This document shows, piece after piece, positions 4,392-55,404 of a stretch of DNA of 64,000 nt. The notes beneath the pieces were generated by a model, which did not search any database, was not told where the DNA came from, and saw only the letters and a program-made list of their open reading frames with translations. The stretch is from sequence record OP079919.1; one strand, 5' to 3'. The stretch comes from Klebsiella phage KPN8. A program made the translations under genes and the position numbers. The stretch's first letter is position 1. Each line of letters starts with the position of its first letter.

Positions 4392-4415
4392 TTTAATTTA
4401 TCTTTAGGAAAAATC

Positions 4416-4850
4416 ATGGAAAATCAAATCGAAAAACCGGATTGCTTTTATATTGCTAAAGGTCATTTGTCCGGATGCAGTTCTTTGTCTTTCGACAAAG
4501 AGGGGTTCTTAAGTAATAATGAAGTCGACGAATCGCTGATTGAAAACCTGGTCGGCGGTTATCTTGAAATAGAAGATCACGAAGACGGACTTAGTTATTT
4601 TGAAGCATTGGTGACCGTCTCGGAAGAACGAATTGGAAGTGGATTTAAAACCCATACGGTGAAACGCCACACACTCCATATCGAAGCCGTCAATGACGAA
4701 TCCGACACCCTGAAATTCACCATCGACAACGTTGATACGAAAGACTTCGACGCGCTAATCGAACGTTACAACGGTGTGATCTCCGCCTTTGATGAGAATC
4801 GTCAACATTCCTTGTACTCGGCCTTTGCAACGGCTTTACAATACTGCTAA
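4416..4850 (+). CDS. hypothetical protein, paralog B (ends ALQYC)
   Basis: tandem duplicate of 3984-4391; TTTAGGAAAAATC-ATG. Confidence 0.65.
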   Translation: MENQIEKPDCFYIAKGHLSGCSSLSFDKEGFLSNNEVDESLIENLVGGYLEIEDHEDGLSYFEALVTVSEERIGSGFKTHTVKRHTLHIEAVNDESDTLKFTIDNVDTKDFDALIERYNGVISAFDENRQHSLYSAFATALQYC

Positions 4851-4874
4851 TCAACACCACTTTTAGGAAAAATC

Positions 4875-5402
4875 ATGTCTGACATCAAACGTATTGCTGA
4901 CTTAATGTACCAATCGGTTATTCAGAATAACCCAGGGATTCTAAAAGCCGGATTGGTTGTCATTGCGACAGACCAAGAAAAAATGGTGAAGTCGGATGTT
5001 CGTTTCATTCCGGTCTCAGCCGCTGTTGGGCCAAATCCGGTCCATGAAAGAATAGAAGCGATTATTAAGGAGGGCGGGTTTTACCTTCACCACCTCGATA
5101 ACGTCTGGGTTGTCACCAATTTCGAAGGGCGGGCACAGGCGGCGTTGTTATACGCGCAACATTGCTTCCAACAATATGCCGTGCGTCTACCACCTGACAG
5201 CGGGTATCGTGGTTATGAAATCAATCCTGGTGTCAGAGTCGAGATCGTTGGGTTCTCCGATCCAACCGCCGAGCCTGAAGAGGCATTCTCGCTTTATGAA
5301 TCATTATGTGCTGAATGCAACCCCTCCCTTGTCAACATAAACGGCGAAGTCCATCTGAAGTCAGACGCTCGTTATCGTAACAGTCACGAGGGCGGTTACT
5401 AA
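4875..5402 (+). CDS. hypothetical protein (175 aa)
   Basis: TTTTAGGAAAAATC-ATG. Confidence 0.65.
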   Translation: MSDIKRIADLMYQSVIQNNPGILKAGLVVIATDQEKMVKSDVRFIPVSAAVGPNPVHERIEAIIKEGGFYLHHLDNVWVVTNFEGRAQAALLYAQHCFQQYAVRLPPDSGYRGYEINPGVRVEIVGFSDPTAEPEEAFSLYESLCAECNPSLVNINGEVHLKSDARYRNSHEGGY

Positions 5403-5429
5403 TAGTCTAAGTAACACAAGGAATAAAAA

Positions 5430-5795
5430 ATGATAGTGAGACTTGTGGTTAACCAACATTGTCGTCTAGGTTGGTGGTTTGAAAGAGAATATTTCTCCTA
5501 CAATAACCGCGATCTGAGAGACCTCGCCCCTAAGAATAGTGAAACTTATTATTCTGGTGGGGAGCACGGCGTTAATCTCTTCACAGAGAAAGGCGATGAA
5601 ATCAGGGCGTGGTTAGAACTCGTCAAAGAAACTTATCCGATTATTGAAGAAGAGATCGGTCTGGTTCTTAAAGAGATCGGAAACAGTAAAGGGGGATTTT
5701 ACGATGTGCGTAAAATCCTGCGAGATCGCAAACCTTCTTTACTTTGGCAGTGGTCTCCAATGAACAAAGATTTCTTGCCTCCTTCCGTTTTTTGA
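5430..5795 (+). CDS. hypothetical protein (121 aa)
   Basis: ORF; AAGGAATAAAAA-ATG. Confidence 0.55.
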   Translation: MIVRLVVNQHCRLGWWFEREYFSYNNRDLRDLAPKNSETYYSGGEHGVNLFTEKGDEIRAWLELVKETYPIIEEEIGLVLKEIGNSKGGFYDVRKILRDRKPSLLWQWSPMNKDFLPPSVF

Positions 5796-5880
5796 TCTAG
5801 AGCAATGCCCAGACAAGGATGTCGTCAACACAGCTTAGTGCTGTTTCGAGTCAACTAATTAAACTCAACGAGGAATAAAC

Positions 5881-6756
5881 ATGTTAAGAAATATTCACGA
5901 ATGCATCCGCGCTATCGATATTCATTCTGGTGTAGTGATGTCACTCAGACTCAACGCAGATGATCGAGTAGAACGTCTCACTGCGTCGATCATGATCTCA
6001 GATAGATACGATAACCGGTTCTTAATCTTACCAGATGAAATTAGAACATTCACACAAACCATCCGTGAGTTTGTGCACGGAATTATACCAGGATTTAATC
6101 CTAACGCACCTAAACTTCAATATGTCGTAGTAGAAAACCTGAAAGAAAAACGGGTTAACATTTCTTTTAAAGGAACGACGATAAAAGTGGGCGGGGATAG
6201 AGACCCAAGGATCAATCTTACCGAGATTCTTGAAACGATATCACTCTGGCACCCTTTCATTATTCAGTGGCCAATTTACGGGGTGGTTGACTACGCCGAA
6301 TTGAATAAACTAAACAGAATGCTGTTGCTTCATCGAGACTCCGGCAACTTCCTTAAAGTTCTAACTCGACAAGGAAATATGTCCAATCCGTTGACGACCA
6401 TTACCGTAAGAGATGGTCGGGGATCTCACAAGGAGCTGGTGATTTCTAACAGAACCCAATTCTCGATGATTATTTCTGGTACTGCCGGTAAAGACATCTT
6501 GGAGTTGATTATCGAAACGCTCCAATCTAAACCAATGTTAGGTGATCGGAAAGGTCACATCAAAGAGCTGGCAGGGAAGTACGTTTTTGTCTGCTCCTTG
6601 ATAAAAGCCCCTCGTAAAGAAAACTTTGATCGACACCAGCTCACGATTATGAGTGAGGTCGGACCTTATCCTCAAGCTATCCGTTTAAATTTTGAAACAG
6701 ATGAAGAAAGAAATGAAATTATTTCGGGACTGGAACACGCTTTAACAATCGTTTAA
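5881..6756 (+). CDS. hypothetical protein (291 aa)
   Basis: ORF; GAGGAATAAAC-ATG; followed by terminator. Confidence 0.65.
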   Translation: MLRNIHECIRAIDIHSGVVMSLRLNADDRVERLTASIMISDRYDNRFLILPDEIRTFTQTIREFVHGIIPGFNPNAPKLQYVVVENLKEKRVNISFKGTTIKVGGDRDPRINLTEILETISLWHPFIIQWPIYGVVDYAELNKLNRMLLLHRDSGNFLKVLTRQGNMSNPLTTITVRDGRGSHKELVISNRTQFSMIISGTAGKDILELIIETLQSKPMLGDRKGHIKELAGKYVFVCSLIKAPRKENFDRHQLTIMSEVGPYPQAIRLNFETDEERNEIISGLEHALTIV

Positions 6757-6759
6757 CTT

Positions 6760-6919: not shown

Positions 6920-6951
6920 AATACGGAATACAAATTTAGGAAATCAAGATC

Positions 6952-7368
6952 ATGAAAAATATCTTTATCGCCCTCTCTCTGTTCGTTTTCTCTTTCTCCG
7001 CACTAGCTGAAGATTTTGTCTGTAAGACAGAAGCCTATGTCGCCGATCCGAAAGGAACCGATCCGGCAGTAATAACTCACGGCGTTTACAGTTTTGATTA
7101 TAATCGCGCTACCGACGTTTTAACCAAAATCGATGGTAAGAAAGATGACTTCGCAGTCCCTACCTTTGCGGTAGGTAAGGACGACAAAGGCATCACCGTC
7201 CGCGTGGGGTATAAAGGCAAAATGGTATATTGGTTTGGGTTTAACGGCCGGGCTATCGATTCCGTCATTCTGGCGGAACATAAAACCATGATAACCCGAG
7301 ATTCTTTTAAAGGGGATACCATGGCGAAAACTGTTTATTTGAAAATGTACAGCGACTGTTCTTATTAA
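6952..7368 (+). CDS. secreted protein with signal peptide (138 aa)
   Basis: N-terminal MKNIFIALSLFVFSFSALA-ED; TTTAGGAAATCAAGATC-ATG. Confidence 0.7.
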   Translation: MKNIFIALSLFVFSFSALAEDFVCKTEAYVADPKGTDPAVITHGVYSFDYNRATDVLTKIDGKKDDFAVPTFAVGKDDKGITVRVGYKGKMVYWFGFNGRAIDSVILAEHKTMITRDSFKGDTMAKTVYLKMYSDCSY

Positions 7369-8073: not shown

Positions 8074-8100
8074 CATCAACTTTATTTAGGGAAACGTATC

Positions 8101-8556
8101 ATGTCATTACTGAAAAACATCGTTATTAAATCTTCTTCTATTTCCGCCATCTGTGGGATTCCGACTTATAAGGATAAACCTTGCGCTTACACCAACGTGG
8201 GGTTCAATCGCAAACTTTACGGTACGGGCGTGGACTACGTCCTCGATAATTCGGATGGGATCCTCAAACAAACTAATCTGGATGAAACCAGTTCTGATCA
8301 GCCGACTAAGCTTAACGGTGTTTTCGTTATTAAACACATGACCGGGTTGGTTGACGGCAATTCCTGCGTAATCGGGGTTAAGGACGACGTCATCCTTTGC
8401 GTGGCGGACAACAAAGGACTTATCTGGACCCACCCCACCTGTTCCACAATGAGTATTCAGGATGAGTGTCTCAAAGAGGTGATGACTCCCGACGGATTCG
8501 AGCAGTATAAGTTGGGTCGTAAACGTCGCTTCTCTGACGATCTGGCTTTCTTTTAA
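8101..8556 (+). CDS. hypothetical protein (151 aa, Cys-rich)
   Basis: TTTAGGGAAACGTATC-ATG. Confidence 0.6.
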   Translation: MSLLKNIVIKSSSISAICGIPTYKDKPCAYTNVGFNRKLYGTGVDYVLDNSDGILKQTNLDETSSDQPTKLNGVFVIKHMTGLVDGNSCVIGVKDDVILCVADNKGLIWTHPTCSTMSIQDECLKEVMTPDGFEQYKLGRKRRFSDDLAFF

Positions 8557-9804: not shown

Positions 9805-9830
9805 TCCGTTTTTCTTTAGGAATTAACATC

Positions 9831-10208
9831 ATGTCTAAGTTATCATCTTCAGCGGTAAATGATTTATTTTGTGAGTGTTTGGCTGGATCAGAAGAAGATC
9901 CCGACGTAAAGGTCGTAGTGGGTATCGTAGGGGTCTTTATCTTCGATCCCGCTAAACTTATTGAAAACAAAGAAAGTATCGTTTCTTTTCTCATGGAGCT
10001 TCCTGAGAAATTTCAGGAAGAGAAAGGAGGCGGGTGGAGTTTCCTCGAAGCTTGTATGGATAAAGAGGGAAACCACTGGGCAGAACATCCAACCATCGAA
10101 CGGCTAATGGGTCTGGGAATCGCCATAGATAAAGTAGAATACGTTCTACCGCGCGAAATGTGGTCCGTCCTCCCAGGCGGAATGCCGTATTTTGTTATTA
10201 AGAAATAA
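9831..10208 (+). CDS. hypothetical protein (125 aa)
   Basis: TTTAGGAATTAACATC-ATG. Confidence 0.65.
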   Translation: MSKLSSSAVNDLFCECLAGSEEDPDVKVVVGIVGVFIFDPAKLIENKESIVSFLMELPEKFQEEKGGGWSFLEACMDKEGNHWAEHPTIERLMGLGIAIDKVEYVLPREMWSVLPGGMPYFVIKK

Positions 10209-12392: not shown

Positions 12393-12419
12393 ACACCCCT
12401 CACTTTTAGGAAAATGCAA

Positions 12420-12818
12420 ATGTCTACTATCTCTCAAAACTCAACTACTGATATGAACGGCAAAGTGACTTTTAATAAAGGCGCTTTCCCGCAGCTGATG
12501 ACCCCAACTTTCATGATCTTCATCTGGGCCTATCAGCCGGTTATGAACGCCATCCAGGGCTGGAACCCGGCCATCGGTTTCATCTTCGCCTTTGTCGTCT
12601 TCCTGATCTGGTTTTGTCATGACCGCGCATTCTTGGCTTCACAAGGTGCGTTCGTCCCTCACTGGCTTTGGTTCCTTTTCGTTCCGGTGTATATCTATAA
12701 ACGCCAGAAACGTAACGGTAATAGCCGTTGGTGGGTCGTCTTCTGGCTGATCAGCGTAATAATGGGGTTGGTGGTTTCCGCCGCCACTATGGCAGTATTC
12801 CATCCCCAGGGTTACTGA
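12420..12818 (+). CDS. small integral membrane protein (about 132 aa, 3-4 TM helices)
   Basis: hydrophobic segments; start moved to ATG 12420 (8 nt from TAGGA). Confidence 0.6.
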   Translation: MSTISQNSTTDMNGKVTFNKGAFPQLMTPTFMIFIWAYQPVMNAIQGWNPAIGFIFAFVVFLIWFCHDRAFLASQGAFVPHWLWFLFVPVYIYKRQKRNGNSRWWVVFWLISVIMGLVVSAATMAVFHPQGY

Positions 12819-12870: not shown

Positions 12871-12893
12871 TTTATTTCTTAGGAATAAACATC

Positions 12894-13538
12894 ATGGCAA
12901 CTCCACGTAAAAAGAAACCCGCAACAAAAAACCGCATGACTTTCGAACAAAAACGTCTGTCTGAAATCATTAAGAAAGTCTATCACGAGCTCTATTTTGT
13001 CGGGGCGTCTTTTTATAAACCGACGGCGGTCAACGCCAACAAGCTCTTCTTAGGAGCTCAGGGTAAAGAAGTTCATACCGCGCGGCGAATTCTATTAGAT
13101 CATTTGATCAGCCTTAAGACGAACTGGCCTTTATGGGTTGGGTGTTTCTTCAATACCCCTAATGGAATCTCTGTGGCTACCGCAGACTCTTTATGGGAAG
13201 CAGAGACGATGTTATCCTTCGGGGGACAGTTCAATAAAAGAATAGAGACTGTGGTAGATGGCATCATCGAAGCTGAAAATGACCCCGACTGCACTCGGGA
13301 AACATTGATAGGCTACGGATATTTCTTTAGCCACTGCGACATCTACAACATGTCCGGGACAGACGAACGTTTAGTAAAACTGATGCTCCCCTATATGGAC
13401 AAGCATTTGGCTAAAGAAGTTAAACCAGAAGACGTCGTCGTTAGCACAGACCTTTTGATCGAATCAATAGTCAAGCGTGGTGGGGTCGCTAAAGATGGCA
13501 AAATCGAAGAATACATCGAGGTGTCGGAGGAGTGGTGA
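12894..13538 (+). CDS. hypothetical protein (214 aa, basic N-terminus)
   Basis: TTTCTTAGGAATAAACATC-ATG. Confidence 0.65.
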   Translation: MATPRKKKPATKNRMTFEQKRLSEIIKKVYHELYFVGASFYKPTAVNANKLFLGAQGKEVHTARRILLDHLISLKTNWPLWVGCFFNTPNGISVATADSLWEAETMLSFGGQFNKRIETVVDGIIEAENDPDCTRETLIGYGYFFSHCDIYNMSGTDERLVKLMLPYMDKHLAKEVKPEDVVVSTDLLIESIVKRGGVAKDGKIEEYIEVSEEW

Positions 13539-14732: not shown

Positions 14733-14757
14733 GGGTGGGGTTTCCCACCCCCTATTT
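14733..14757 (+). terminator. weak terminator-like hairpin (GGGTGGG-gttt-CCCACCC)
   Basis: 7-bp GC stem; poor T-run. Confidence 0.35.
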
Positions 14758-14768
14758 AGGAGAAAATT

Positions 14769-15044
14769 ATGGCTCAGGCGCCATCCATAGTTTATTATGC
14801 TGCACGCACCACACCGACGGGAATTCTTTTGGTTGGTCAGGATCCTGACACCAAAGAGGTTCGTAAGTTCGATGTACCTAAAGATAAGCTGAACGCCAAA
14901 TTAGGCGAGAAGTTTCGTTTGAGTTTCGGGGAGTTTCTCAGGGAAGATGAACCCGACCCGATTATCTTCAGGGTTCATGATCTGAGTAAACCCAAAAAGA
15001 AACTCAATCCAAATAAGAAACATGCTAAAAGGAAAAGAAAATGA
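14769..15044 (+). CDS. hypothetical protein with Lys-rich basic tail (91 aa)
   Basis: TATTTAGGAGAAAATT-ATG. Confidence 0.6.
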   Translation: MAQAPSIVYYAARTTPTGILLVGQDPDTKEVRKFDVPKDKLNAKLGEKFRLSFGEFLREDEPDPIIFRVHDLSKPKKKLNPNKKHAKRKRK

Positions 15045-15250: not shown

Positions 15251-15252
15251 TC

Positions 15253-15477: not shown

Positions 15478-15501
15478 TCTATCTTTTTAGGAATTAACAT
15501 C

Positions 15502-15750
15502 ATGATGAATAGGTTGAGGTTAAGACTAAAGAAAAACCTTTCTAAGACCTATCGACAATCCATTAGGTTTGAATCAGATTACCGTTATAGGGTTATCGAC
15601 CTCGGCAATCATTTTCGTATTGAGAAAAGGATCTCTGGATATTGGATATTTGCGCACTGGATGCGTTTACCGGTTATCTTTAACACCTACGACAGGGCTA
15701 AGAACAAGATCATTATTCTCGGTATTCATCACACGTTTAAACTCGGTTAA
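15502..15750 (+). CDS. hypothetical protein (82 aa, basic)
   Basis: TTTTTAGGAATTAACATC-ATG. Confidence 0.55.
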   Translation: MMNRLRLRLKKNLSKTYRQSIRFESDYRYRVIDLGNHFRIEKRISGYWIFAHWMRLPVIFNTYDRAKNKIIILGIHHTFKLG

Positions 15751-16451: not shown

Positions 16452-16465
16452 CTTTAGGGAATATC

Positions 16466-16918
16466 ATGGCTAACGAATTCAACATTAACGGTAAAAGTAT
16501 CAATGTGCCTTCAGGCGCGTCCATCAGTTTCTCCAATGGCGAACTGTTAATTAACGGCAAACCTCCTTCAGAGATTGAGCCTGGTCAGAACATCACAGTT
16601 AATATCATTGTGCAGGGTTCTGCTACGAAAATCGATATCGGATCAGGGACCGTTACTGTCAATGGATCGGCCGGGGAAATAAAAACAGCATCCGGCGATG
16701 TTAACGTGCAAGGTAATTGTGAAGGTCAGATAACCACCGCATCGGGTGATGTGGATGTTGGCCAAGAAGCAAGAAACGGAATAAAAACTGCTTCTGGTAA
16801 CGTGACGGCAAAGACTATAAAGGGGAACGTTGAAACTTCTTCCGGAGATATTCAAGCTGATCAGATCGTCGGTAATGTTAAAACGACTTTCGGTACGATA
16901 AAACCCCCTCATGGATAA
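16466..16918 (+). CDS. bactofilin-like beta-helical repeat protein
   Basis: repeats GSGTVTVNGSAGEI / KTASGDVNVQGN / TTASGDVDVGQE / KTASGNVTAKTIKGNVETSSGDI; TTTAGGGAATATC-ATG. Confidence 0.55.
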   Translation: MANEFNINGKSINVPSGASISFSNGELLINGKPPSEIEPGQNITVNIIVQGSATKIDIGSGTVTVNGSAGEIKTASGDVNVQGNCEGQITTASGDVDVGQEARNGIKTASGNVTAKTIKGNVETSSGDIQADQIVGNVKTTFGTIKPPHG

Positions 16919-18549: not shown

Positions 18550-18577
18550 TCTGAATAGACCTAGTAATAACTGGGTC

Positions 18578-18585
18578 TATATTAC
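18578..18585 (+). promoter_or_regulatory. TATATTAC box, candidate phage (phiKZ-type early) promoter
   Basis: exact 8-mer in intergenic gap 35 nt upstream of ATG 18620. Confidence 0.35.
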
Positions 18586-18619
18586 TCCTATACCACACTA
18601 AGATTTAGGAATTAAAATC

Positions 18620-19207
18620 ATGATGAATCAATTAAAGGATTGGATCGATTACTCTTCTTACTGGAATACGTATAACCGCGTTCTTCTTCGTAAAGGAGGG
18701 ATGTACACCGAACAGATCGAACTGGAGCTCACCCCAATTAACGACGAGTGGGACGAAGTTAAACTCTGTAAAATCCGTAAGCATCGTACGAGCATGGGAC
18801 CGGGGGATAAAATTAGTCATCATCTCCATCCTGACATCTTTGCATTGATGGAAGAGAAGCTAGGATATCATTTAGCTCATTTCATCTTTCACTACGATAT
18901 CTACACTAAGCTAACCAATTACGATGCAAGAAGATACTGGTACTTGCTAGATCGTTATGTCTTTAATGGCGGCGGCGGAATACCGCTGGTGTTGATAGAT
19001 CCAAACTTTGATTTGCTGAGAGAGGATTGGGCTAAAGGGACTTCCTCGGCTTACGCCGACGCTAAACAACGCATTATGGATAGATTGAACATAGGGTTGG
19101 ACCAGGTAAACAATCTGAGTTTTTTCGGGGATTTAAGACGCTTGGACATTCACGATCACACACCATTTAGAGTGGGCGTGGCAACTTGGGTGGGGGATAA
19201 ACGATGA
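18620..19207 (+). CDS. hypothetical protein (195 aa)
   Basis: TTTAGGAATTAAAATC-ATG. Confidence 0.65.
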   Translation: MMNQLKDWIDYSSYWNTYNRVLLRKGGMYTEQIELELTPINDEWDEVKLCKIRKHRTSMGPGDKISHHLHPDIFALMEEKLGYHLAHFIFHYDIYTKLTNYDARRYWYLLDRYVFNGGGGIPLVLIDPNFDLLREDWAKGTSSAYADAKQRIMDRLNIGLDQVNNLSFFGDLRRLDIHDHTPFRVGVATWVGDKR

Positions 19208-20185: not shown

Positions 20186-20206
20186 TATTAATTTAGGGGA
20201 AATCAA

Positions 20207-20518
20207 ATGAAATTATTTCTGGTCCGTTCGCCCGATAATGCGGGGGAATATGAAAGATGGCGAGAGCTGGTTGTTGTTGCTAGAGATGAAAAGGAAGCAA
20301 AAGACATAACGTTCCCGCATCCCGATTTCGTTTCTGGGACTTCAGTATTTGGACAGGTTCCTACCGGTGATAACCATGGTTCGCTATCAGGGCTTCCTTA
20401 TGGAGAAAAAGGCCGTGGGTATTGGTACCCTAACCGTGATAACCTCCAGGTTATCTGTTTGGGGGAAACGTCTCTTACAGAACCTGGAGCTATATCAGGG
20501 TTTTTCTACCACGCGTAA
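20207..20518 (+). CDS. hypothetical protein (103 aa)
   Basis: TTTAGGGGAAATCAA-ATG. Confidence 0.55.
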   Translation: MKLFLVRSPDNAGEYERWRELVVVARDEKEAKDITFPHPDFVSGTSVFGQVPTGDNHGSLSGLPYGEKGRGYWYPNRDNLQVICLGETSLTEPGAISGFFYHA

Positions 20519-20541
20519 TAAACATCTTTAGGGGAAATATC

Positions 20542-23550: not shown

Positions 23551-23590
23551 ATCTGGTTGGGCTCATCCAACCAGATTACCTTTACTTTAG
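23551..23590 (+). terminator. intrinsic terminator-like hairpin (ATCTGGTTGG-gctcat-CCAACCAGAT)
   Basis: 10-bp stem; moderate T content after. Confidence 0.5.
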
Positions 23591-23603
23591 GAAAAAAAAT
23601 ATC

Positions 23604-33872: not shown

Positions 33873-33885
33873 AGGAATTAACATC

Positions 33886-36090: not shown

Positions 36091-36114
36091 GAAAACCTTT
36101 TAGGAACTAACATC

Positions 36115-38678: not shown

Positions 38679-38687
38679 GAAAATGAA

Positions 38688-39911: not shown

Positions 39912-39935
39912 CCTTTTATTTTAGGACAAACATCG

Positions 39936-40490
39936 ATGATTTTACAAGCAGTTAGCGTCGGTGGTAAGAAAACCACCATAGAAATAGAAGAAGGGCTTGT
40001 TAATGTTTGGCTGTTAGCTAAGCACGACGTCTTCTTACAAAACTTACCTCCTCTGGTTTGTCATGCATTGATTAAAGAGCATATCGAACGCAATATTACC
40101 CGTCGACCTGACATTCCTTTAACAGCCCAAGTACGCGAGCTGATGTACCGCGATATTACCATTAAGCTCAACGGTAAACCAAACTCGGTCATTCCCGTAA
40201 TTAAAGTAAGGCCGAGTAAAACCAGAAACCAGCTGAACCGAATCGTCAAAGAGTACTTCACGGTAAACAGCATGGAGTTCGATAAGAAACTCACTGTTGG
40301 TGAAATGCGTAAATTGGAGAAATACCTCCTTTCCTTTTACAAAGAACCCGTGCAGATTCACAAGAAAGAATTCCCTAATGGGGTTTATAAACTCATCGGC
40401 GTGGAATACGAAAATGAGCGGTTTGAAATAACCTTCTCTGACGATTTCTTCTTCGCTTTATATAAGGGCCCAGAATACCATGTTCAATAA
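39936..40490 (+). CDS. hypothetical protein (184 aa)
   Basis: TTATTTTAGGACAAACATCG-ATG. Confidence 0.65.
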   Translation: MILQAVSVGGKKTTIEIEEGLVNVWLLAKHDVFLQNLPPLVCHALIKEHIERNITRRPDIPLTAQVRELMYRDITIKLNGKPNSVIPVIKVRPSKTRNQLNRIVKEYFTVNSMEFDKKLTVGEMRKLEKYLLSFYKEPVQIHKKEFPNGVYKLIGVEYENERFEITFSDDFFFALYKGPEYHVQ

Positions 40491-40948: not shown

Positions 40949-40964
40949 CATATTATTTTAAAAC

Positions 40965-40972
40965 TATATTAC
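40965..40972 (+). promoter_or_regulatory. TATATTAC box, candidate phage promoter
   Basis: exact 8-mer 43 nt upstream of ATG 41016, directly after terminator. Confidence 0.35.
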
Positions 40973-43705: not shown

Positions 43706-43732
43706 CTCGAGTATCAATTTAGGAAAAATATC

Positions 43733-44182
43733 ATGCAATTAGATAACATTTGGTTTTTCGGTATAGACGCAGAAGATCTAGAAAATTTTAAAGCGATCTT
43801 TACCGTAGAAGGGTTAAAGGAACCCTTTGATTTTAATTTCATTCCCTTCACCATTTCGCCTCAGTCGATGGTCGCTCACACTAAAGAACTGACGATCACG
43901 CTTTACCCCGTTAAAGAGAAAATTTTATTAAATGGTAAAGTAGAACAAACGATCTTTAAAGGTTCCGACGGAAGGTTGTATTTTAACCTGGGTTCGATTA
44001 TCCAGGTGATGAATAGCCAAATAGCCGCCTTTGTAGCCAAATCCTTTTCTGGGTTTAATAAACTAGGCTGGTTTATTAAAGAGATCGACGGAAGTTTTAT
44101 CCTATTCAACGTCCAGAGCTTCAGTGACGAGGGGTTGATTAAACTGTATCGATCCTCTAGCGTAACCGATAGCTCCAATTAA
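43733..44182 (+). CDS. hypothetical protein (149 aa)
   Basis: CAATTTAGGAAAAATATC-ATG. Confidence 0.65.
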   Translation: MQLDNIWFFGIDAEDLENFKAIFTVEGLKEPFDFNFIPFTISPQSMVAHTKELTITLYPVKEKILLNGKVEQTIFKGSDGRLYFNLGSIIQVMNSQIAAFVAKSFSGFNKLGWFIKEIDGSFILFNVQSFSDEGLIKLYRSSSVTDSSN

Positions 44183-46887: not shown

Positions 46888-46963
46888 TTCGCTATTCTCT
46901 GAATTAGTTAGTAATAAACGATCATAGCATTTTAGACTTTCGACACATAGAAGTTTTCAGTTC

Positions 46964-46971
46964 TATATTAC
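46964..46971 (+). promoter_or_regulatory. TATATTAC box, candidate phage promoter
   Basis: exact 8-mer 39 nt upstream of ATG 47010 in divergent intergenic region. Confidence 0.35.
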
Positions 46972-47009
46972 CGTTATGTAAACACAACCTATCATTTAGG
47001 AAAGCCATC

Positions 47010-47492
47010 ATGGAACTCGTTAATCAAAAAGTTTATATTGTTAAGCCAGGCGATACTCTGTCAGAGATAGCAAACCATTTTTGTGGGAATCCTGCTATCG
47101 GATACGATATAGCTGAGGACAACGGCATTATCAACGCCGGACTCATCTATCAAGGGCAAAGAATCTGGATAAGGGAGGGATTCCTAAAGGAAGAATTTAA
47201 GGGCGCTCCTAATACCCAACCCAAAGAAGAACCTTTCAGAGAAGGGCAGCATGTTCAAATCACCCCATCTGGTAAATTAACAAGACTGGATCTTCATGAC
47301 TTGTGTTGGAATACCGAACCATTAGCTAAGGGTTTCTTCGTGATTGTCGAAATACATCCAAATCAGACAGAGCTTTTAGTGCAAGATAATAAGAACCGCC
47401 ATTATTACTTCAATCTAAATGAATTGAAGGAACTTATTCGGGTTCGTGGGGCGATAGAAATTTCCCCTAATCGTTTTATGCCGTTTAGCTAA
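47010..47492 (+). CDS. LysM domain protein
   Basis: YIVKPGDTLSEIANHF...GLIYQGQRIWI LysM consensus at N-terminus. Confidence 0.7.
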   Translation: MELVNQKVYIVKPGDTLSEIANHFCGNPAIGYDIAEDNGIINAGLIYQGQRIWIREGFLKEEFKGAPNTQPKEEPFREGQHVQITPSGKLTRLDLHDLCWNTEPLAKGFFVIVEIHPNQTELLVQDNKNRHYYFNLNELKELIRVRGAIEISPNRFMPFS

Positions 47493-47507: not shown

Positions 47508-47924
47508 ATGAAAAAGATTGTCTTATATTTATTCCCTCGATCTTCGCTCATCCCACCCATGAGTGTTCCACCTACTCGCAAGGCAGACCTCCTAAAAGAG
47601 TTGGAGGATGTTGACGGGTGGATCTCGGATATACAAGAGATCACGGAACTCGGTATTGAAGTTCGACAACACGAATTCCTGATTACCGATGACGGGTTTA
47701 ACGTTATCGCCAAAGAGTGGGAAGTTCACTTTAATGATCCCGACATTTATTGCATGCTCGAAGTATACGGGCTTCCAAAAAATATACGGGATAAAATTAT
47801 TGTCGGACTGAAAGGAATTAAGGAATTATTTACGTCGAGGGTTTGTTCGTTCCTCTCGGTGATTCCTGAAGAAACGATGGTTTTAATCGAAGCTCAACCC
47901 GTCGAAGAAGACGAACAACTTTAG
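47508..47924 (+). CDS. acidic hypothetical protein, paralog A (138 aa)
   Basis: DGWISDIQEITELG motif shared with next gene. Confidence 0.55.
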   Translation: MKKIVLYLFPRSSLIPPMSVPPTRKADLLKELEDVDGWISDIQEITELGIEVRQHEFLITDDGFNVIAKEWEVHFNDPDIYCMLEVYGLPKNIRDKIIVGLKGIKELFTSRVCSFLSVIPEETMVLIEAQPVEEDEQL

Positions 47925-47935
47925 GATTTAACATC

Positions 47936-48313
47936 ATGTATGAGGTTACTGTTTACCATTGCTCCAGACAAGAACTGGAAAAGAAAGATCAGGATTTCTT
48001 CGAAGACCTGACCAAGAACGAAGGTTGGGTAGAAGACATCGAAGATATTGAAATGGCGCTGGGTTCCAGGGAGGATTGCATTGAAGGTCAAGAATTCAGA
48101 TTACCCGTCTCTGCTTTAGATATCCTGGAAATGAAATGGGAGGGGCGTTTTGACTCTGGCATTTGCATGTGTTCCGCCATTTACTATTTCTCGCCTGAAT
48201 GCATTGAATCCGTATGTCGTGATCTTTCCGATCATGGTACTCGGGAGGCCGCTCTCTTAGCAGAGTACCTGCGGGACATCCCCGATACCGAAATTGTCGT
48301 TATCGAAATCTAA
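47936..48313 (+). CDS. acidic hypothetical protein, paralog B (125 aa)
   Basis: ACTTTAGGATTTAACATC-ATG; EGWVEDIEDIEMALG. Confidence 0.6.
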   Translation: MYEVTVYHCSRQELEKKDQDFFEDLTKNEGWVEDIEDIEMALGSREDCIEGQEFRLPVSALDILEMKWEGRFDSGICMCSAIYYFSPECIESVCRDLSDHGTREAALLAEYLRDIPDTEIVVIEI

Positions 48314-49287: not shown

Positions 49288-49332
49288 GTGGGAGTCCGCA
49301 AGGGCTCCCACGCTATTTATTAATTTATTTTT
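49288..49332 (+). terminator. intrinsic terminator (TGGGAGTCC-gcaa-GGGCTCCCA + T-rich)
   Basis: 9-bp stem (1 mismatch), TTTATTAATTTATTTTTT. Confidence 0.6.
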
Positions 49333-49343
49333 TAGGATAAAAC

Positions 49344-49901
49344 ATGACCATTATCGTAGGGGTTGTAAAAGAAAAATCGTTAAGTGCGGACCGTTATATA
49401 CTGGATTACAAGCAGATCAACAAAACAGTATCTTCGGTTTCACGCTACACCGAGAGTAAATTAAAAATATCTCCGGACAATCATTTCTGTTATGTCTTCT
49501 GTGGCGAACAAAAAGAAGAGATCGTTCCATTGGTTCTTAACTATTTACTCAGATTCGAAAAAGGTCTGGTGAAGGAAGACGAATTTATTCATTGCGGACT
49601 TAAATCCTGCGACTCCCTCATTGTGATGTCCGCGAGACATTTTTACTCAATTCAGTTAAATGAAAAACAGGGTGTTTTAGAAGTTCAAATTCGTTTAGAT
49701 GGCGCAGTCACCTATCCTTTTTTAAACAACCATATGGTCGCCGGTCTCGATCTCCCAGGGGAAGTAATTCGTCAAGCACTGATGGAAGCCAATCTCATTC
49801 TCCACACCGATGAAAATGAAGTTGACGTGGTCCATCAAAAAGACCTCACTCTTATTAAGAAAGCCACCAAAAAGGAAATTAAAAATGCTCTTTTATCTTA
49901 A
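49344..49901 (+). CDS. hypothetical protein (185 aa)
   Basis: TTTTTTAGGATAAAAC-ATG. Confidence 0.65.
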   Translation: MTIIVGVVKEKSLSADRYILDYKQINKTVSSVSRYTESKLKISPDNHFCYVFCGEQKEEIVPLVLNYLLRFEKGLVKEDEFIHCGLKSCDSLIVMSARHFYSIQLNEKQGVLEVQIRLDGAVTYPFLNNHMVAGLDLPGEVIRQALMEANLILHTDENEVDVVHQKDLTLIKKATKKEIKNALLS

Positions 49902-50343: not shown

Positions 50344-50403
50344 AACCAAGATTCCTATTATACGTTAAAGAATTTTGGATCTATATCACCGTCTTGATGC
50401 ACT

Positions 50404-50423
50404 AACCATAATCTTTTTAGGAG
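50404..50423 (+). promoter_or_regulatory. 20-nt exact repeat AACCATAATCTTTTTAGGAG (copy 2) upstream of GroEL-like gene
   Basis: identical to 27417-27436. Confidence 0.45.
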
Positions 50424-50433
50424 TATTAACATC

Positions 50434-52011
50434 GTGAACGTTCGTGGCGTAAAAGTAAAAGCAGAAACCCGTCAAATTATTGATAACACCGTAGAGCTCG
50501 TTGCAACCGCGGTAACCTCGACCATGGGCCCTAACGGCAAGCTGGTTGTTATTGACGAAACGGGTAATCCTAAAATGACCAAGGATGGGGTGACTGTAGC
50601 GCGCTCTATCCGTTTGGATGATCGGGCAATGGACATCATCGCCAAGATGATCACCGAAGCCTCGATCAAAACGGATGCCGAATGTGGCGATGGGACCACC
50701 ACCACCGTATTCTTAACAAGAGCGTTTTATAACGCCTTTAAAGATAAACTGGATTTCATGACCAAACGCCGGGTGGAAGAGTTAACGAAAGAAACGATCG
50801 AAATGCTCAAAGGAATGACGAAGGTTATTTCTCTTGATAGCCCAGTCCTTCACAATCTGGCGTTAACAACCAGTAATAACGATCTGGATATCGTGAATAA
50901 GCTCTACGATATCTTTAAGACCATACCCGATCCCATGATTGATTATCGTCGGGGTGTAACAGGTATTGACGAGATCGAATACAGTAAGGGCAAGGAATTC
51001 ACAGGCGGGTACGCGCACCCTACTTTCACTAAAGATGGAAGTGGAAGCCCGATTACGATCGAATCGGGTTATGCGTGCATCTTTGAAGGGAAGTTCAGTA
51101 TTCCAGATGACGAGTCGGAATTCCTGAGGCTCTTCGATGAGATCACTAAAAGGGGATATCGTCAGACTATCGTTATCGCACGTGAATTCGACGAACACAC
51201 CCTGATGGTGATGAACAAAATGAATCACGTTATGCTGAAGCAGAAACTGGCGGAGGAACCCGTTTTCATTCCTGTGCGGGTTCAGGCTATCGGAACAGCG
51301 GGAGTGGGGATCATTGGAGATATTGCAACCGTACTGGGGTTAAGTCCTGATGTGGACTATTTAGGTTGGAAGTCTCGTGACTATGAGGTACACTGTATTG
51401 AAAACATTACGGTAAAGGGCGCGGCATTCTTCGTGGGTAGTGTATCTGATGAAGTCTCGGAACGCACAGTAAAGCGCATCGGGCAAATTAAAGATCAAAT
51501 CGATAACTTGCCAGCTGCTCAGAAACACACGCCTTTGGCGAAGATCCTGAGACACCGTATCTCTACTCTGATGGGTAACCGAGTGACTGTAACCGTTGGA
51601 GGAGAAACCGCTTCCGACATCAAAGAACGACTGGATCGATTTGAAGACGTCGGTCGGGCTATCGCATCAGCGTTAACTAACGGCGTCCTTCCGGGCATTG
51701 GTTATTCATTGGCTTATGTTGGTAGTGAGCTGGTGAAGAAATATCCTGACGATTCTATAGTGAAACTGTACGCCGATGTATTGGGCGAGCAGCTTCACAT
51801 GTTGATGGGTCGGGAATTCAATGATCCTGAATTAGTCTATGTCAATCTGGCTACTGGGGAAACCGGTAAGCATCCTCAAGACATCAACGTCTGGGATGCG
51901 CAGTTAGCCACAGTCACTGCGTTAAGGGCTGGTGTCAGCACTGCTATCTCTTTGGCGAGCACCGATACGTTAATTATCGGTAGTCGTGCAGGTGGTGCGG
52001 ATATTCCCTGA
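50434..52011 (+). CDS. GroEL-like chaperonin (Cpn60/TCP-1 family), GTG start
   Basis: MGPNGKLVVIDETGNPKMTKDGVTVARSI...AECGDGTTTTVFL matches GroEL GPKGRNVVL..TKDGVSVAREI..AGDGTTTATVL; 525 aa; no adjacent GroES. Confidence 0.85.
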   Translation: MNVRGVKVKAETRQIIDNTVELVATAVTSTMGPNGKLVVIDETGNPKMTKDGVTVARSIRLDDRAMDIIAKMITEASIKTDAECGDGTTTTVFLTRAFYNAFKDKLDFMTKRRVEELTKETIEMLKGMTKVISLDSPVLHNLALTTSNNDLDIVNKLYDIFKTIPDPMIDYRRGVTGIDEIEYSKGKEFTGGYAHPTFTKDGSGSPITIESGYACIFEGKFSIPDDESEFLRLFDEITKRGYRQTIVIAREFDEHTLMVMNKMNHVMLKQKLAEEPVFIPVRVQAIGTAGVGIIGDIATVLGLSPDVDYLGWKSRDYEVHCIENITVKGAAFFVGSVSDEVSERTVKRIGQIKDQIDNLPAAQKHTPLAKILRHRISTLMGNRVTVTVGGETASDIKERLDRFEDVGRAIASALTNGVLPGIGYSLAYVGSELVKKYPDDSIVKLYADVLGEQLHMLMGREFNDPELVYVNLATGETGKHPQDINVWDAQLATVTALRAGVSTAISLASTDTLIIGSRAGGADIP

Positions 52012-53999: not shown

Positions 54000-54077
54000 C
54001 TTATATTTATTTTGAGGTCTACATTATCATGGTGTAAGCATAGTACGTTTTTATTTTCCTTTTTAGGAGTTAACATC

Positions 54078-54572
54078 ATGATGAGCCAACTTGTAAATAT
54101 TCTGAGTGAACACAGATCGGCGTTTATTTGGCCTTCCAACATCCTTCAGTTAGAAGATGAATACTTCTATCTCTCGGTCAAGATTACGGAGAGTGGTGTG
54201 GTCAAATGTATCTTCCGGAACAAGCTCACCAAAGACGTCCGTAAGTTCGACTTCTCTGATAGCATTTTTGATAAAGAGGGGTTATGGGATTACTTCAATG
54301 CGATCGGCAAAGAAGTCTACGCCATTGGGATTGACTACGGTAAAGGGTTCCAGCTGAAGATGTTGTTTGAGCCGATTAAGGCGATGATCACCGATAAGGC
54401 GCATAAGCCTTATAATGGGCATCTTCCAAGAGACGTAAGAGCACCACTGTTTTCCCCGGTTAACGCCCGCAGTATTTATCTCGACGAAAACGGCGAAGTC
54501 ACACTCGATGGCTTCGAATGGGCTTCTCGTGGATTGCAATTAAAAATCATCGAAGAGCTCTTAATTAACTAA
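54078..54572 (+). CDS. hypothetical protein (164 aa; trimmed from 54012)
   Basis: TTTTTAGGAGTTAACATC-ATG. Confidence 0.65.
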   Translation: MMSQLVNILSEHRSAFIWPSNILQLEDEYFYLSVKITESGVVKCIFRNKLTKDVRKFDFSDSIFDKEGLWDYFNAIGKEVYAIGIDYGKGFQLKMLFEPIKAMITDKAHKPYNGHLPRDVRAPLFSPVNARSIYLDENGEVTLDGFEWASRGLQLKIIEELLIN

Positions 54573-54615
54573 TTAATGTTATGCTAATTAGCTCATCACT
54601 GTAAAGAGGATTAAG

Positions 54616-55092
54616 ATGAAAAACCTGCTCGATTTAGTGCTCAAATTTTTCATTGGGCTTAACCCAGGCCTGGCCGTACTGATGGAAGGTGGTTCGATCG
54701 TCAATGTGGTTGAAAAACCAGAAATCGATCGTTACGCCGGTGATATCATGCGTCCGGACGGCACAACCAAGCTTCTGTCGGTAACCTGGAAACCGGGTAC
54801 ATTTAAAGGCGTGTTCGGCCTCGATCCAGCCTTTGCTCCCGTCACGCAGGATGAAGCAGGCACCACTGAAGGTATCTTCCTGAAGACCGACGGCACGCCT
54901 TACTTTGCGTTGACGGCTGAAAATGCTACCGAAGCCAAAATCGAAGAAATCCTCGGATATGCTTTCGAAGAAGGCACGGTCGCAGTAGACACCGAAACCA
55001 AAAAGGTCAGCTTCGCAACGTCTACTATCGTTGCTGAAGTCGATCTGGTCGTTATCGAAGCGGCTCCGGTGGCCGACGGCCAACTGCCGTAA
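54616..55092 (+). CDS. hypothetical protein (158 aa), GC3-rich probable abundant protein
   Basis: AAGAGGATTAAG-ATG; host-like codon bias; strong terminator. Confidence 0.7.
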   Translation: MKNLLDLVLKFFIGLNPGLAVLMEGGSIVNVVEKPEIDRYAGDIMRPDGTTKLLSVTWKPGTFKGVFGLDPAFAPVTQDEAGTTEGIFLKTDGTPYFALTAENATEAKIEEILGYAFEEGTVAVDTETKKVSFATSTIVAEVDLVVIEAAPVADGQLP

Positions 55093-55098
55093 TAAGTA

Positions 55099-55150
55099 AC
55101 CTACTCCTACGTCCTTAACGGGGCGTAGGAGTAGTTCGTTAATTATAACT
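55099..55150 (+). terminator. intrinsic terminator, palindromic family member 5 (CTACTCCTACG...CGTAGGAGTAG)
   Basis: 11-bp stem, T-rich tail. Confidence 0.65.
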
Positions 55151-55197
55151 GACTTTTTTAATATATAACCACCAACGTTCATTTAGGACATAACACC

Positions 55198-55404
55198 ATG
55201 TTGTATGACGCAATTGAAGTTTGTTTTATCGTAATCTCCATTCTTTCCTTTATCTGGGTAATGAAGAAGAAAGGAACCGGGGCGATGTTAATTATTGCGT
55301 TTTCTATTGTTGTCGTGGCAGGATGTCGTTATCAAGATAACGCCGATACCGAACAAGCTTTAGAACATCCAAAATATACCAAATCTAACTGCGGCTGCTT
55401 ATAA
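55198..55404 (+). CDS. small membrane protein (68 aa)
   Basis: CATTTAGGACATAACACC-ATG; 2 TM. Confidence 0.55.
   Translation: MLYDAIEVCFIVISILSFIWVMKKKGTGAMLIIAFSIVVVAGCRYQDNADTEQALEHPKYTKSNCGCL

Follow-up and report, generated by a model that had tools for sequence, protein, structure and literature searches.

AU-rich enhancers situated 5' of Shine-Dalgarno sites are targets of ribosomal protein S1, a strong phage example being the leader of T7 gene 10 (TTTAAGAAGGAGATATACAT-ATG). For the T7 epsilon enhancer, complementarity to 16S rRNA has been proposed. In T4, GGAG is the cleavage target of RegB, and RegA recognises AU-rich sites; these targets lie inside the ribosome-binding region of a subset of mainly early genes. 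Short intergenic repeats, such as the promoter-early stem-loops (PeSLs) of T4-like phages and the lambdoid boundary sequences, are located between accessory genes and act as recombination junctions. In phiKZ, whose early promoters serve the virion RNA polymerase, 5'UTRs measure 31-40 nt and no leaderless mRNAs occur (PMC8244752).

Examination of a 64,000-nt stretch of Klebsiella phage KPN8 (OP079919.1), hereafter the window, revealed a motif, TTTAGGA followed by ATC, that recurs directly before start codons. Its sites resemble Shine-Dalgarno sites with AU-rich 5' enhancers in having, at a standard distance before the start codon, a purine core with complementarity to the 3' end of 16S rRNA, together with U-rich sequence directly 5' of the core, an A-rich, G-poor spacer and weak structure. 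They differ by their short core (AGGA/AGGG), by the almost invariant TTT and ATC, and by forming a discrete class of only about one quarter of the genes. Unlike the T7 epsilon enhancer, the spacer is not complementary to 16S rRNA above chance. As for phiKZ-type early promoters, the motif recurs upstream of many genes of a phage encoding its own multisubunit RNA polymerases and is enriched at early operon heads; it nevertheless touches the start codon, lies 3' of the promoter element and mostly occurs without it, the true counterpart here being a T-rich tract followed by CTATATTAC. The position of the signature recalls the RegB/RegA targets, but its sequence differs, and we know of no cognate nuclease or repressor for the Miami-type motif. 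Finally, as with PeSLs and boundary sequences, the endpoints of a few indels coincide with the motif, but synteny breaks are not enriched there over other gene starts.

A composite motif at start codons

The strict pattern TTTAGGR-N3-8-ATC-RTG has 19 matches in the window, all on the + strand and each leading directly into a real ORF, against 0.07 +/- 0.26 expected from 100 dinucleotide-preserving shuffles. The claim of a uniform pattern extending beyond a bare AGGA is thus borne out. The loose pattern TTTAGG-N6-12-RTG gives 35 matches (7.1 +/- 2.7 expected); 32 of them are on the + strand and real ORFs follow 28 of these 32. Approximately 28-29 of the ~110 genes in the window are marked by this looser form (Table 1). 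Perfect TTTAGG combined with perfect ATC is found at 17 of the 1015 ATG triplets of the + strand. ATC occupies positions -3 to -1 in 18/27 genes with TTTAGG and in 6/83 without it (Fisher p=1.7e-9), and the cross-tabulation is bimodal, 18 genes having 6/6 positions of TTTAGG with 3/3 of ATC and one having 5/6 with 3/3. TTTAGG and ATC together make up one composite motif that is discrete, not a continuum.

All 26 starts listed in the original prediction carry (T)TTAGG 7-12 nt before ATG or GTG. The proposed spacer of two or three nucleotides plus AACATC does not hold: TTTAGG lies 7-12 nt (mode 10) from the start codon, ATC keeps a fixed position directly before it and exact AACATC is present at only ~8 starts. 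The invariant start-adjacent part consists of A(-3) T(-2) C(-1) and mostly follows AA, the frequency of A in motif genes reaching 85%, 81% and 85% at -6, -5 and -3. Seven of the listed starts deviate: ATC is missing from -3 to -1 behind TTTAGG at 12420, 20207, 27445, 49344 and 55198 and shifted by one base at 39936, while CTTAGGA replaces TTTAGGA at 12894. Three motif genes use a GTG start. The 15-mer GGAGTAGTAAAATGA is indeed common to 41005 and 58967, but belongs to a different ribosome-binding-site variant.

Table 1. Motif sites and early-promoter-like elements, in window coordinates; scores are position-weight-matrix scores
Feature	Position	Strand	Gene	Remarks
Early-promoter-like CTTTAATAT	3935..3943	+	3984	5' of gene; score 14.1
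Ribosome-binding site TTTAGGGGTATCGACATC-ATG	3966..3986	+	3984-4391	Strict; early-promoter-like site upstream at 3935-3943
TTTAGGAAAAATC-ATG	4403..4418	+	4416-4850	Strict; 24 nt past upstream stop codon
TTTAGGAAAAATC-ATG	4862..4877	+	4875-5402	Strict; 24-nt gap to upstream stop codon
TTTAGGAAATCAAGATC-ATG	6935..6954	+	6952-7368	Strict; terminator 6758-6794 and promoter-like site 6830-6838 upstream
TTTAGGGAAACGTATC-ATG	8085..8103	+	8101-8556	Strict; Miami orthologue annotated at 116397
TTTAGGAATTAACATC-ATG	9815..9833	+	9831-10208	Strict; Miami alignment restarts exactly at 9815
TTTAGGAAAATGCAA-ATG	12405..12422	+	12420-12818	Loose; without ATC
CTTAGGAATAAACATC-ATG	12878..12896	+	12894-13538	TTAGGA variant; directly 3' of terminator 12824-12851
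TTTAGGAGAAAATT-ATG	14755..14771	+	14769-15044	Loose; abutted by hairpin 14733-14750
TTTAGGAATTAACATC-ATG	15486..15504	+	15502-15750	Strict; 24-nt gap to upstream stop codon
TTTAGGGAATATC-ATG	16453..16468	+	16466-16918	Strict
Early-promoter-like CTATATTAC	18577..18585	+		18 nt 5' of TTTAGG at 18604
TTTAGGAATTAAAATC-ATG	18604..18622	+	18620-19207	Strict
TTTAGGGGAAATCAA-ATG	20192..20209	+	20207-20518	Loose
TTTAGGGGAAATATC-GTG	20527..20544	+	20542-20763	Strict; 588-nt two-gene insertion relative to Miami starts right after
TTTAGGAAAAAAAATATC-ATG	23586..23606	+	23604-24167	Strict
Early-promoter-like CTTTATTAT	27394..27402	+	27445	5' of gene; score 16.5
TTTAGGAGCATGTAAC-GTG	27429..27447	+	27445-27747	Loose; leader homologous to leader of 50434
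TTTAGGAAATAAAATC-ATG	29071..29089	+	29087-30799	Strict
TTTAGGGCTACGATT-ATG	32384..32401	+	32399-33142	Loose
TTTAGGAATTAACATC-ATG	33870..33888	+	33886-34182	Strict
TTTAGGAACTAACATC-ATG	36099..36117	+	36115-36912	Strict; in VB_ZK_P1, gene behind 33886-type upstream sequence
TTTAGGAAAATGAA-ATG	38674..38690	+	38688-39911	Loose
TTTAGGACAAACATCG-ATG	39920..39938	+	39936-40490	Loose
Early-promoter-like CTATATTAC	40964..40972	+	41016	Heads non-motif gene with ribosome-binding site GGAGTAGTAAA-ATG; score 28.3
TTTAGGAAAAATATC-ATG	43718..43735	+	43733-44182	Strict
Early-promoter-like ttttcagttCTATATTAC	46963..46971	+		23 nt 5' of TTTAGG; score 26.1
TTTAGGAAAGCCATC-ATG	46995..47012	+	47010-47492	Strict; orthologue is endolysin in Miami annotation
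TTTAGGATTTAACATC-ATG	47920..47938	+	47936-48313	Strict
TTTAGGATAAAAC-ATG	49331..49346	+	49344-49901	Loose
Early-promoter-like ttttggatCTATATCAC	50381..50389	+		26 nt 5' of TTTAGG; score 25.0
TTTAGGAGTATTAACATC-GTG	50416..50436	+	50434-52011	Strict; GroEL-like gene
Early-promoter-like CTACATTAT	54019..54027	+	54078	5' of gene; score 18.5
TTTAGGAGTTAACATC-ATG	54062..54080	+	54078-54572	Strict
TTTAGGACATAACACC-ATG	55182..55200	+	55198-55404	Loose

Relation to ribosome-binding sites and promoters

In the motif, G peaks at -12/-11, which matches the Shine-Dalgarno G peak (-12 to -8) of the 88 non-motif genes. At least 18 nt of non-coding DNA lie upstream of 24/27 motif genes versus 32/83 others (p=4e-6). 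Initiation regions fold more weakly in motif genes (-7.0 versus -9.6 kcal/mol, p=0.002), a difference that is not significant (p=0.13) when the non-motif genes are restricted to those that likewise have 18 nt or more of non-coding DNA upstream. Ten motif sites follow the preceding stop codon by 21-27 nt, too closely for a promoter to fit in between.

A separate element, the T-rich tract and CTATATTAC, fits the published early promoters of jumbo phages (PMC7598289). It heads about eight motif genes or operons, at 12-26 nt 5' of TTTAGG; the start codon is 28-50 nt away from it (mostly 34-50), in keeping with the 31-40 nt 5'UTRs of phiKZ (PMC8244752), and the motif is preferred at promoter-headed genes (6/27 versus 2/77, p=0.0036). 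Promoter-like sequence is missing from about 20 motif sites, where position-weight-matrix scores are at background, and sigma-70-like sites are not enriched (34 found versus 36 expected). Several motif genes are directly 3' of strong hairpin terminators with no recognisable promoter between; such genes would depend either on read-through or on an unrecognised promoter overlapping the region.

Distribution and conservation

Sequence identity is ~97% between the window and Miami, a Klebsiella jumbo phage that forms a nucleus and has RNA polymerases of its own. In Miami, the same early-promoter-like element precedes the genes for chimallin and for RNA polymerase subunits. Among the 43 motif genes of Miami, 36 are found at 70-170 kb, in arrays of accessory and nucleotide-metabolism genes, and 7 elsewhere (p=1e-5). 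Structural genes are almost devoid of the motif, their blocks lacking it even given intergenic space. It is absent from related phages of other genera on similar hosts, such as Kosakonia Kc263 and Erwinia RisingSun, so it is not a requirement of the host ribosome, and it is specific to the genus Miamivirus.

TTAAGGAAAG(G/A)CATC replaces the motif sequence in orthologues of 47010, and TTAAAGGAAGTCTATC does so in the VB_ZK_P1 orthologue of 47936; at both genes TTTAGGA becomes TTAAGGA or TAAAGGA, AGGA and ATC being kept. The 16-nt motif at 18620 is the same in three phages, Miami and VB_ZK_P1 among them, while its flanks have diverged, and overall orthologue identity is 86% at -16 to -1 versus 64% at -30 to -17. 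Motif initiation regions are only slightly more conserved across orthologues than ordinary ones.

A probable translation signal and its alternatives

The most plausible reading of the motif is that of a translation signal situated in the mRNA leader, rather than a promoter. The comparisons above indicate that it is probably an RNA-level translation-initiation region, or extended ribosome-binding site. Nucleus-forming jumbo phages of the Miami type (Miamivirus) would employ it for the free-standing genes of their early and accessory arrays, genes whose translation is not coupled to that of the gene before them. In this model, AGGA (or AGGG) would be the Shine-Dalgarno core pairing with the 16S rRNA 3' end (…CCUCCUUA-3'), the UUU 5' of it and an A-rich, G-poor spacer of 6-9 nt would keep the site unstructured, and A-U-C would fill -3 to -1 beside AUG or GUG. 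Transcripts would be polycistronic and made by the phage's own RNA polymerases. At operon heads, the separate phiKZ-type early promoter (T-rich tract and CTATATTAC) would start a leader of ~30-45 nt holding the motif; within operons, the motif would restart translation 21-27 nt or more past the previous stop codon. Counting against this model are the related phages on similar hosts that do without the motif, the folding difference that loses significance in the restricted comparison, the motif genes behind terminators with no recognisable promoter, and the fixed UUU and AUC.

The original prediction had proposed a combined promoter/leader element or a specific initiation mechanism, such as a phage-modified ribosome or very short leaders. 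Its discrete extended initiation context stands, but the promoter part is not supported, given the separate upstream element at about eight genes, the ~20 sites devoid of promoter-like sequence, the ten sites close to a stop codon and the lack of enrichment in sigma-70-like sites. Very short leaders are not supported either, given the Shine-Dalgarno register of AGGA, the GTG starts, the exchange of TTTAGGA for TTAAGGA or TAAAGGA, and the lack of leaderless mRNAs in phiKZ (PMC8244752). Register, orthologue exchange, stop-codon proximity and separate promoter together leave the promoter and short-leader readings unsupported.

It is unlikely that UUUAGGA…AUC-AUG is the operator of a Miamivirus-encoded RNA-binding protein or endoribonuclease switching translation of the gene class in the manner of T4 RegA/RegB. 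No candidate protein was found and the two halves are variably spaced, over a range of 5 nt, although the discreteness of the class, the co-occurrence of two elements beyond the Shine-Dalgarno core, the enrichment at early-promoter-headed genes and the restriction to one genus despite similar hosts would all suit an operator. ChmC, from the same phage family, crosslinks near the start codons of phage mRNAs, internal cistrons included, but its peaks lie 25-30 nt downstream of them and no motif was found for it (bioRxiv 10.1101/2023.09.22.559000). The modest excess in orthologue conservation also argues against an operator, as does the Miami genome, which encodes no RNA complementary to the motif elsewhere.

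Somewhat less probable still, TTTAGG would be a promoter element used by the non-virion RNA polymerase for middle genes, transcription starting near ATC/ATG to give (nearly) leaderless mRNAs. Middle and late promoters of such phages are unpredictable from sequence (PMC7598289), and the motif density, ~1 per 2.3 kb, resembles that of the 149 phiKZ transcription start sites (PMC10914365). The class and genus specificity of the motif and the genes behind terminators without another visible promoter also fit. Against this, AGGA is in normal Shine-Dalgarno register and is what orthologues keep, rather than TTTAGG; the GTG starts are ill-suited to leaderless translation, which phiKZ lacks; about eight sites already have an early promoter at the distances given above; and the phiKZ middle and late signals (AT-rich/TACT at ~-22; T-3ATG+1) are unlike the motif (PMC7598289, PMC8244752).

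Least probable of all is a uniformity without function beyond the Shine-Dalgarno core, a cassette having spread by duplication and gene-junction recombination with TTT and ATC as hitch-hikers: the window contains three exact copies of the 19-mer TTTAGGAATTAACATCATG, 27445 and 50434 have duplicated leaders and gene content breaks exactly at the motif at 9815, 20545 and the VB_ZK_P1 join of 33886-type upstream sequence to gene 36115, but synteny breaks are not commoner at motif starts (26/76 versus 68/185 other gene starts), motif genes are mostly unrelated, a single paralogous pair having the motif on both members, only 4 pairs are similar upstream of TTTAGG, and the motif outlasts its flanks at 18620 and in orthologues overall.

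Conclusions

As an extended ribosome-binding site, the motif would be used by ribosomes as an initiation site. To our knowledge, the fixed AUC at -3 to -1 and the fixed UUU before the Shine-Dalgarno core are not explained by what is known of E. coli translation. TTT and ATC may raise efficiency or help something phage-specific to recognise the site, and the uniformity of the motif suggests selection for one standard early-gene initiation site.

Extended initiation motif and its gene class

The window shares ~97% identity with Miami, a Klebsiella jumbo phage of the genus Miamivirus (NC_070950.1, 253 kb), its counterpart there lying at roughly 108.5-171 kb. Also closely related are phiKp_32, YC1, BUCTxx100 and, with ~89% identity, Raoultella phage VB_ZK_P1. 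The gene products of Miami include chimallin (the nuclear-shell protein), the tubulin PhuZ and several beta-like subunits of RNA polymerase, and a study of nucleus-forming phages regards Miami as distantly related to Erwinia phage RAY. Nearly all genes of the window are small, located on the + strand and without known function. A search of IMG/VR with the GroEL-like protein found no close relatives.

The original prediction held that an extended TTT(T)AGGA with a conserved spacer ending in AACATC precedes at least 25 start codons. The extended motif is real: (T)TTAGG stands 7-12 nt before ATG or GTG at 26/26 of the starts listed for it. Relative to dinucleotide-preserving shuffles, the strict form TTTAGGR-N3-8-ATC-RTG is strongly enriched (19 matches, all on the + strand, against 0.07 expected), and each of the 19 ends on the start codon of a real ORF; the loose form TTTAGG-N6-12-RTG gives 35 matches against 7.1. 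Our own ORF tiling placed TTTAGG within 22 nt of the start of 27 genes, to which gene 8101, overlooked by the tiling, adds a twenty-eighth; gene 12894 carries the variant CTTAGGA. The proposed spacer and AACATC proved too narrow, as TTTAGG and the start codon are 7-12 nt apart (mode 10) and AACATC is exact at only ~8 sites. The core is AGGA in 81% of motif sites and AGGG in 19%, and the start-anchored part reads A(-6) 85%, A(-5) 81%, any base, A(-3) 85%, T(-2) 74% and C(-1) 78%.

ATC occupies -3 to -1 in 18 of the 27 TTTAGG genes, against 6/83 others (Fisher p=1.7e-9). Cross-tabulation is bimodal, with perfect TTTAGG and perfect ATC combined in 18 genes and a 5/6 match to TTTAGG combined with perfect ATC in one. 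The two halves form one discrete class. Paralogy was rejected as the source of the repeats, g3984 and g4416 being the sole homologous pair with the motif in both, and similarity upstream of TTTAGG is restricted to four pairs of motif genes. Three unrelated motif genes (15502, 18620 and 54078) each start with a tandem ATG ATG (ATGATGAAT twice, ATGATGAGC once), so that for two of them identity reaches 9 nt into the ORF.

Predicted role in translation initiation

The AGGA/AGGG core is complementary to the 3' end of E. coli 16S rRNA (…CCUCCUUA) and has sequence features of a Shine-Dalgarno: it is purine-rich, stands in the standard register on the coding strand of real genes and exchanges with variants. 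Its GG coincides with the G peak of ordinary sites (-12 to -8). An upstream gap of at least 18 nt is found at 24/27 motif genes against 32/83 others (p=4e-6), ten motif sites lying only 21-27 nt past the preceding stop codon. Where the motif is lacking, genes mostly overlap their upstream neighbour or directly adjoin it, and their sites are ordinary TAAGGA, AAAGGA or GAGG, often with the upstream stop shared. Orthologues sometimes swap the motif for an ordinary Shine-Dalgarno (TTAAGGA or TAAAGGA) while retaining AGGA and ATC; TTTAGGAAAGCCATC at gene 47010 is replaced by TTAAGGAAAGGCATC in Miami and TTAAGGAAAGACATC in VB_ZK_P1, and TTTAGGATTTAACATC at gene 47936 by TTAAAGGAAGTCTATC in VB_ZK_P1. 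Gap pattern, shared register and orthologue exchange together indicate that AGGA takes the role of the Shine-Dalgarno core. Initiation regions with the motif fold at -7.0 kcal/mol against an average of -9.6 (p=0.002), a difference that is not significant relative to other free-standing genes.

We consider it likely that the motif is an extended ribosome-binding site acting on the RNA, the role in translation being predicted from sequence. Such a site would combine AGGA as Shine-Dalgarno core with a U-rich flank on the 5' side, a spacer rich in A and poor in G, and AUC ahead of the start codon, and would serve free-standing genes of early and accessory arrays. It could act in two settings, either within a leader that a separate early promoter produces or inside a polycistronic mRNA, as a signal to restart translation. 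Promoters of leaderless mRNAs are characterised by the lack of a Shine-Dalgarno, a short and constant distance to AUG, and AUG as start codon. The very short leaders also suggested originally do not agree with an AGGA in Shine-Dalgarno register, a variable spacing and three GTG starts.

The sequence that had been noted as common to 41005 and 58967 is indeed present, as GGAGTAGTAAA-ATGA, at both sites (41005-41019 and 58967-58981), and represents a second ribosome-binding-site variant in two genes. Miami sites resembling it are found at the chimallin gene (TTAGGAGTTAAGA-ATG) and at gene 243970 (GGGAGTAATAAC-GTG).

Distribution of the motif and possible trans-acting factors

Across the whole Miami genome, 36 of the 43 motif genes lie at 70-170 kb and 7 elsewhere (p=1e-5), the former region consisting of arrays of small accessory and nucleotide-metabolism genes. 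The bias persists when only genes with 18 nt or more of space upstream are counted (36/76 at 70-170 kb against 7/74 elsewhere, p=2e-7), and Miami structural genes with ample upstream space, such as that of the major head protein, are without the motif. In VB_ZK_P1, 12 strict sites occur in 49 kb, with 0 on the opposite strand. Nucleus-forming phages at a greater distance are without the motif, namely Vibrio VP4B, Kosakonia Kc263 and Erwinia RisingSun, the last of the closest genus by shared proteins (PMC7844079) and with 0 loose matches in 29.6 kb. Kosakonia and Erwinia are close to Klebsiella, and absence of the motif from phages of these hosts argues that it is not imposed by the host ribosome. 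The exact 19-mer TTTAGGAATTAACATCATG has three copies in the window and only two matches in all of IMG/VR, both in unrelated contigs without systematic use. An unrelated 4-kb uncultivated viral contig (IMGVR_UViG_3300032321_000917), with no match in the phage collection, carries three motif-like sites within 700 nt, at 2368, 2811 and 3078 (TTAAGGATCAACACC-ATG, TTTAGGAATTAACATC-ATG and TTAAGGATTAACACATC-ATG). A literature search returned no description of the motif and, for Miami-like phages, no transcriptome.

The near-invariance of TTT and ATC and the restriction to one genus are not accounted for by a ribosome-binding site. An operator for a phage RNA-binding factor is an unlikely alternative, yet the best placed among those considered. 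UUUAGGA…AUC-AUG might, at a similarly low probability, be a tag read by a Miamivirus-specific factor that would coordinate ~40 early and accessory genes post-transcriptionally, candidate readers being a translational regulator, an endoribonuclease or an mRNA chaperone/export component of the phage nucleus. In PhiPA3, the conserved protein ChmC crosslinks close to start codons, and no motif was found for it (bioRxiv 10.1101/2023.09.22.559000). The Miami annotation gave no candidate for a cognate phage-encoded RNA-binding protein or nuclease, and a Pfam scan of ten window proteins returned nothing relevant. A RegA/RegB-like operator would be confined to one temporal class of genes; the motif is enriched at genes headed by an early promoter-like element and in the 70-170 kb arrays, and some presumed early genes, chimallin in Miami among them, are without it.

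Several related ideas were rejected. For an epsilon-like enhancer, AAUUAACAUCAUG pairs with E. coli 16S rRNA at -5.8 kcal/mol at best and 97% of shuffles pair at least as well; the complementarity of spacer and ATC to 16S rRNA is likewise not above chance relative to shuffled controls. Sequences complementary to the motif in Miami are only the opposite strands of the sites themselves, which disposes of a trans-acting antisense RNA. MazF-type cleavage would need ACA, found in only about a third of sites, and the TAG within TTTAGG shifts frame relative to ATG with the spacing, which excludes it as a stop codon.

A separate early promoter-like element

The long intergenic regions of Miami share another motif, distinct from TTTAGGA, in which a T-rich tract is followed by (C)TATATTAC. 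The element can be written as a T-rich tract followed by CTATATTAC, with the variants CTTTATTAT, CTACATTAT and TATATAAC and often GTAA ~6 nt later. Early promoters of RNA-polymerase-encoding jumbo phages have been described as an AT-rich block of ~10 nt around -10, preceded in phiKZ by a T-rich tract (PMC7598289, PMC8244752), and the Miami element matches this description. In Miami it is found ahead of the genes for chimallin and an RNA polymerase subunit (231841, 249251). It is probably the early promoter of the Miami lineage, not previously described for Miami. The element, which resembles the phiKZ early (virion RNA polymerase) promoter, is also visible in VP4B and RisingSun.

Early promoter-like elements in the window, from a position weight matrix built on 15 Miami sites
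Feature	Class	Position (nt)	Basis
Early promoter-like	strong	3935-3943	position weight matrix
Early promoter-like	strong	18577-18585	position weight matrix
Early promoter-like	strong	27394-27402	position weight matrix
Early promoter-like	strong	30996-31004	position weight matrix
Early promoter-like	strong	40964-40972	position weight matrix
Early promoter-like	strong	46963-46971	position weight matrix
Early promoter-like	strong	50381-50389	position weight matrix
Early promoter-like	strong	54019-54027	position weight matrix
Early promoter-like	weaker or more distant	6830-6838	position weight matrix
Early promoter-like	weaker or more distant	48838-48846	position weight matrix
Early promoter-like	weaker or more distant	55160-55168	position weight matrix

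The 9-mers of the eight strong matches end 34-50 nt ahead of the start codon and, where the motif is present, 12-26 nt ahead of TTTAGG. This distance to the start agrees with the phiKZ leaders, mapped at 31-40 nt, among which no leaderless mRNA was found (PMC8244752), and places TTTAGGA inside the 5'UTR at operon heads. Promoter-headed genes carry the motif preferentially (6/27 against 2/77, p=0.0036; 8/28 against 3/78, p=0.0009, when 6952, 55198 and 48908 are added). The suggestion that the motif itself is part of a combined promoter was not borne out, since the promoter-like element is separate and ~20 motif sites score only at background as promoters. An overlapping promoter for the non-virion RNA polymerase is improbable, slightly more so than an RNA-binding operator.

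Other promoter types were discarded. With its GG and its position directly against the start codon, the motif differs from the AT-rich element with its T tract (tttt…CTATATTAC), located 12-26 nt upstream, which speaks against a phiKZ-type early promoter; an early promoter with a 30-40 nt 5'UTR does not fit a motif that ends at -1, with ten sites so close behind a stop codon. AR9-type late AACA-N6-TW and phiKZ late TATG promoters would, in the register required, either initiate transcription within the ORF or disrupt the start codon, and are inconsistent across sites. Sites resembling host sigma-70 promoters number 34 against 36.1 +/- 5.5 in shuffles (3001-23000), none consistently placed at the motif.

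Two leaders, 27394-27447 (gene 27445) and 50381-50436 (GroEL-like gene 50434), are duplicates, both with AACCATAATCTTTTTAGGAG and a GTG AAC start; the spacer of 27445 holds a minimal ATG-TAA start-stop pair immediately before GTG. Long perfect terminator-like hairpins lie at 6758-6794, 16924-16959, 27337-27369, 52315-52344, 56848-56886 and 60274-60305. They form a family with a common stem sequence and not just a common shape, (A)TACTCCTACTCCC-GATAA-GGGAGTAGGAGTA with the variant TATTCCTC(C)TACCC…, present in more than 20 copies across Miami, several of which are followed by the early promoter-like element.

Conservation and gene-content breaks

Between the window and VB_ZK_P1, positions -16 to -1 of motif genes are 86% identical and positions -30 to -17 are 64% identical, with almost the same pattern in ordinary initiation regions. 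The latter are nearly as conserved (79-85% against 84-89%), which excludes exceptional purifying selection. In three cases a difference in gene content has its break exactly at the motif: at 9815; at 20545, directly behind motif and GTG, with an insertion of two genes; and at a join in VB_ZK_P1, where 33886-type upstream sequence is fused to gene 36115. Breaks occur at 26/76 motif starts and 68/185 other starts, an absence of enrichment indicating that recombination at gene boundaries is general and not driven by the motif, and cassette recombination through the motif or PeSL-like junctions was rejected on these counts. Neutral spread of a single cassette is the least probable of the readings that we retain, and a poor one.

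Where close relatives differ in gene content, the breakpoints coincide with start codons or miss them by a few bases (20545-21134, 3953-4426, 9793-9815 and ~32252 of VB_ZK_P1). The two-gene insertion in the window took over the ribosome-binding site that had served the orthologue of Miami gp153, and translation of this orthologue is now coupled to that of the inserted genes. A 360-aa ORF at 52330-53412 (+), just upstream of the thymidine kinase gene, combines an HNH_3 endonuclease domain with a helix-turn-helix at the C-terminus. Miami lacks this ORF, phiKp_32 has one in the corresponding place, and it is probably a homing endonuclease insertion.

Significance

For annotation, the motif is a reliable marker of true starts and confirms the downstream starts 12420, 33886 and 54078 where ORF calls had been longer. 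Motif and CTATATTAC element combined would allow the early transcription units of Miami-like Klebsiella phages, themselves candidates for phage therapy, to be mapped for the first time. For Klebsiella engineering, the 19-mer is a candidate for a strong and compact ribosome-binding site. Nucleus-forming phages keep transcription physically apart from translation. Few sequence handles exist for asking whether such phages control translation or mRNA handling by gene class, and a signature of one gene class within the ribosome-binding region is among them; an effect of TTT and ATC in infected cells only, if true, would point to a new phage factor.
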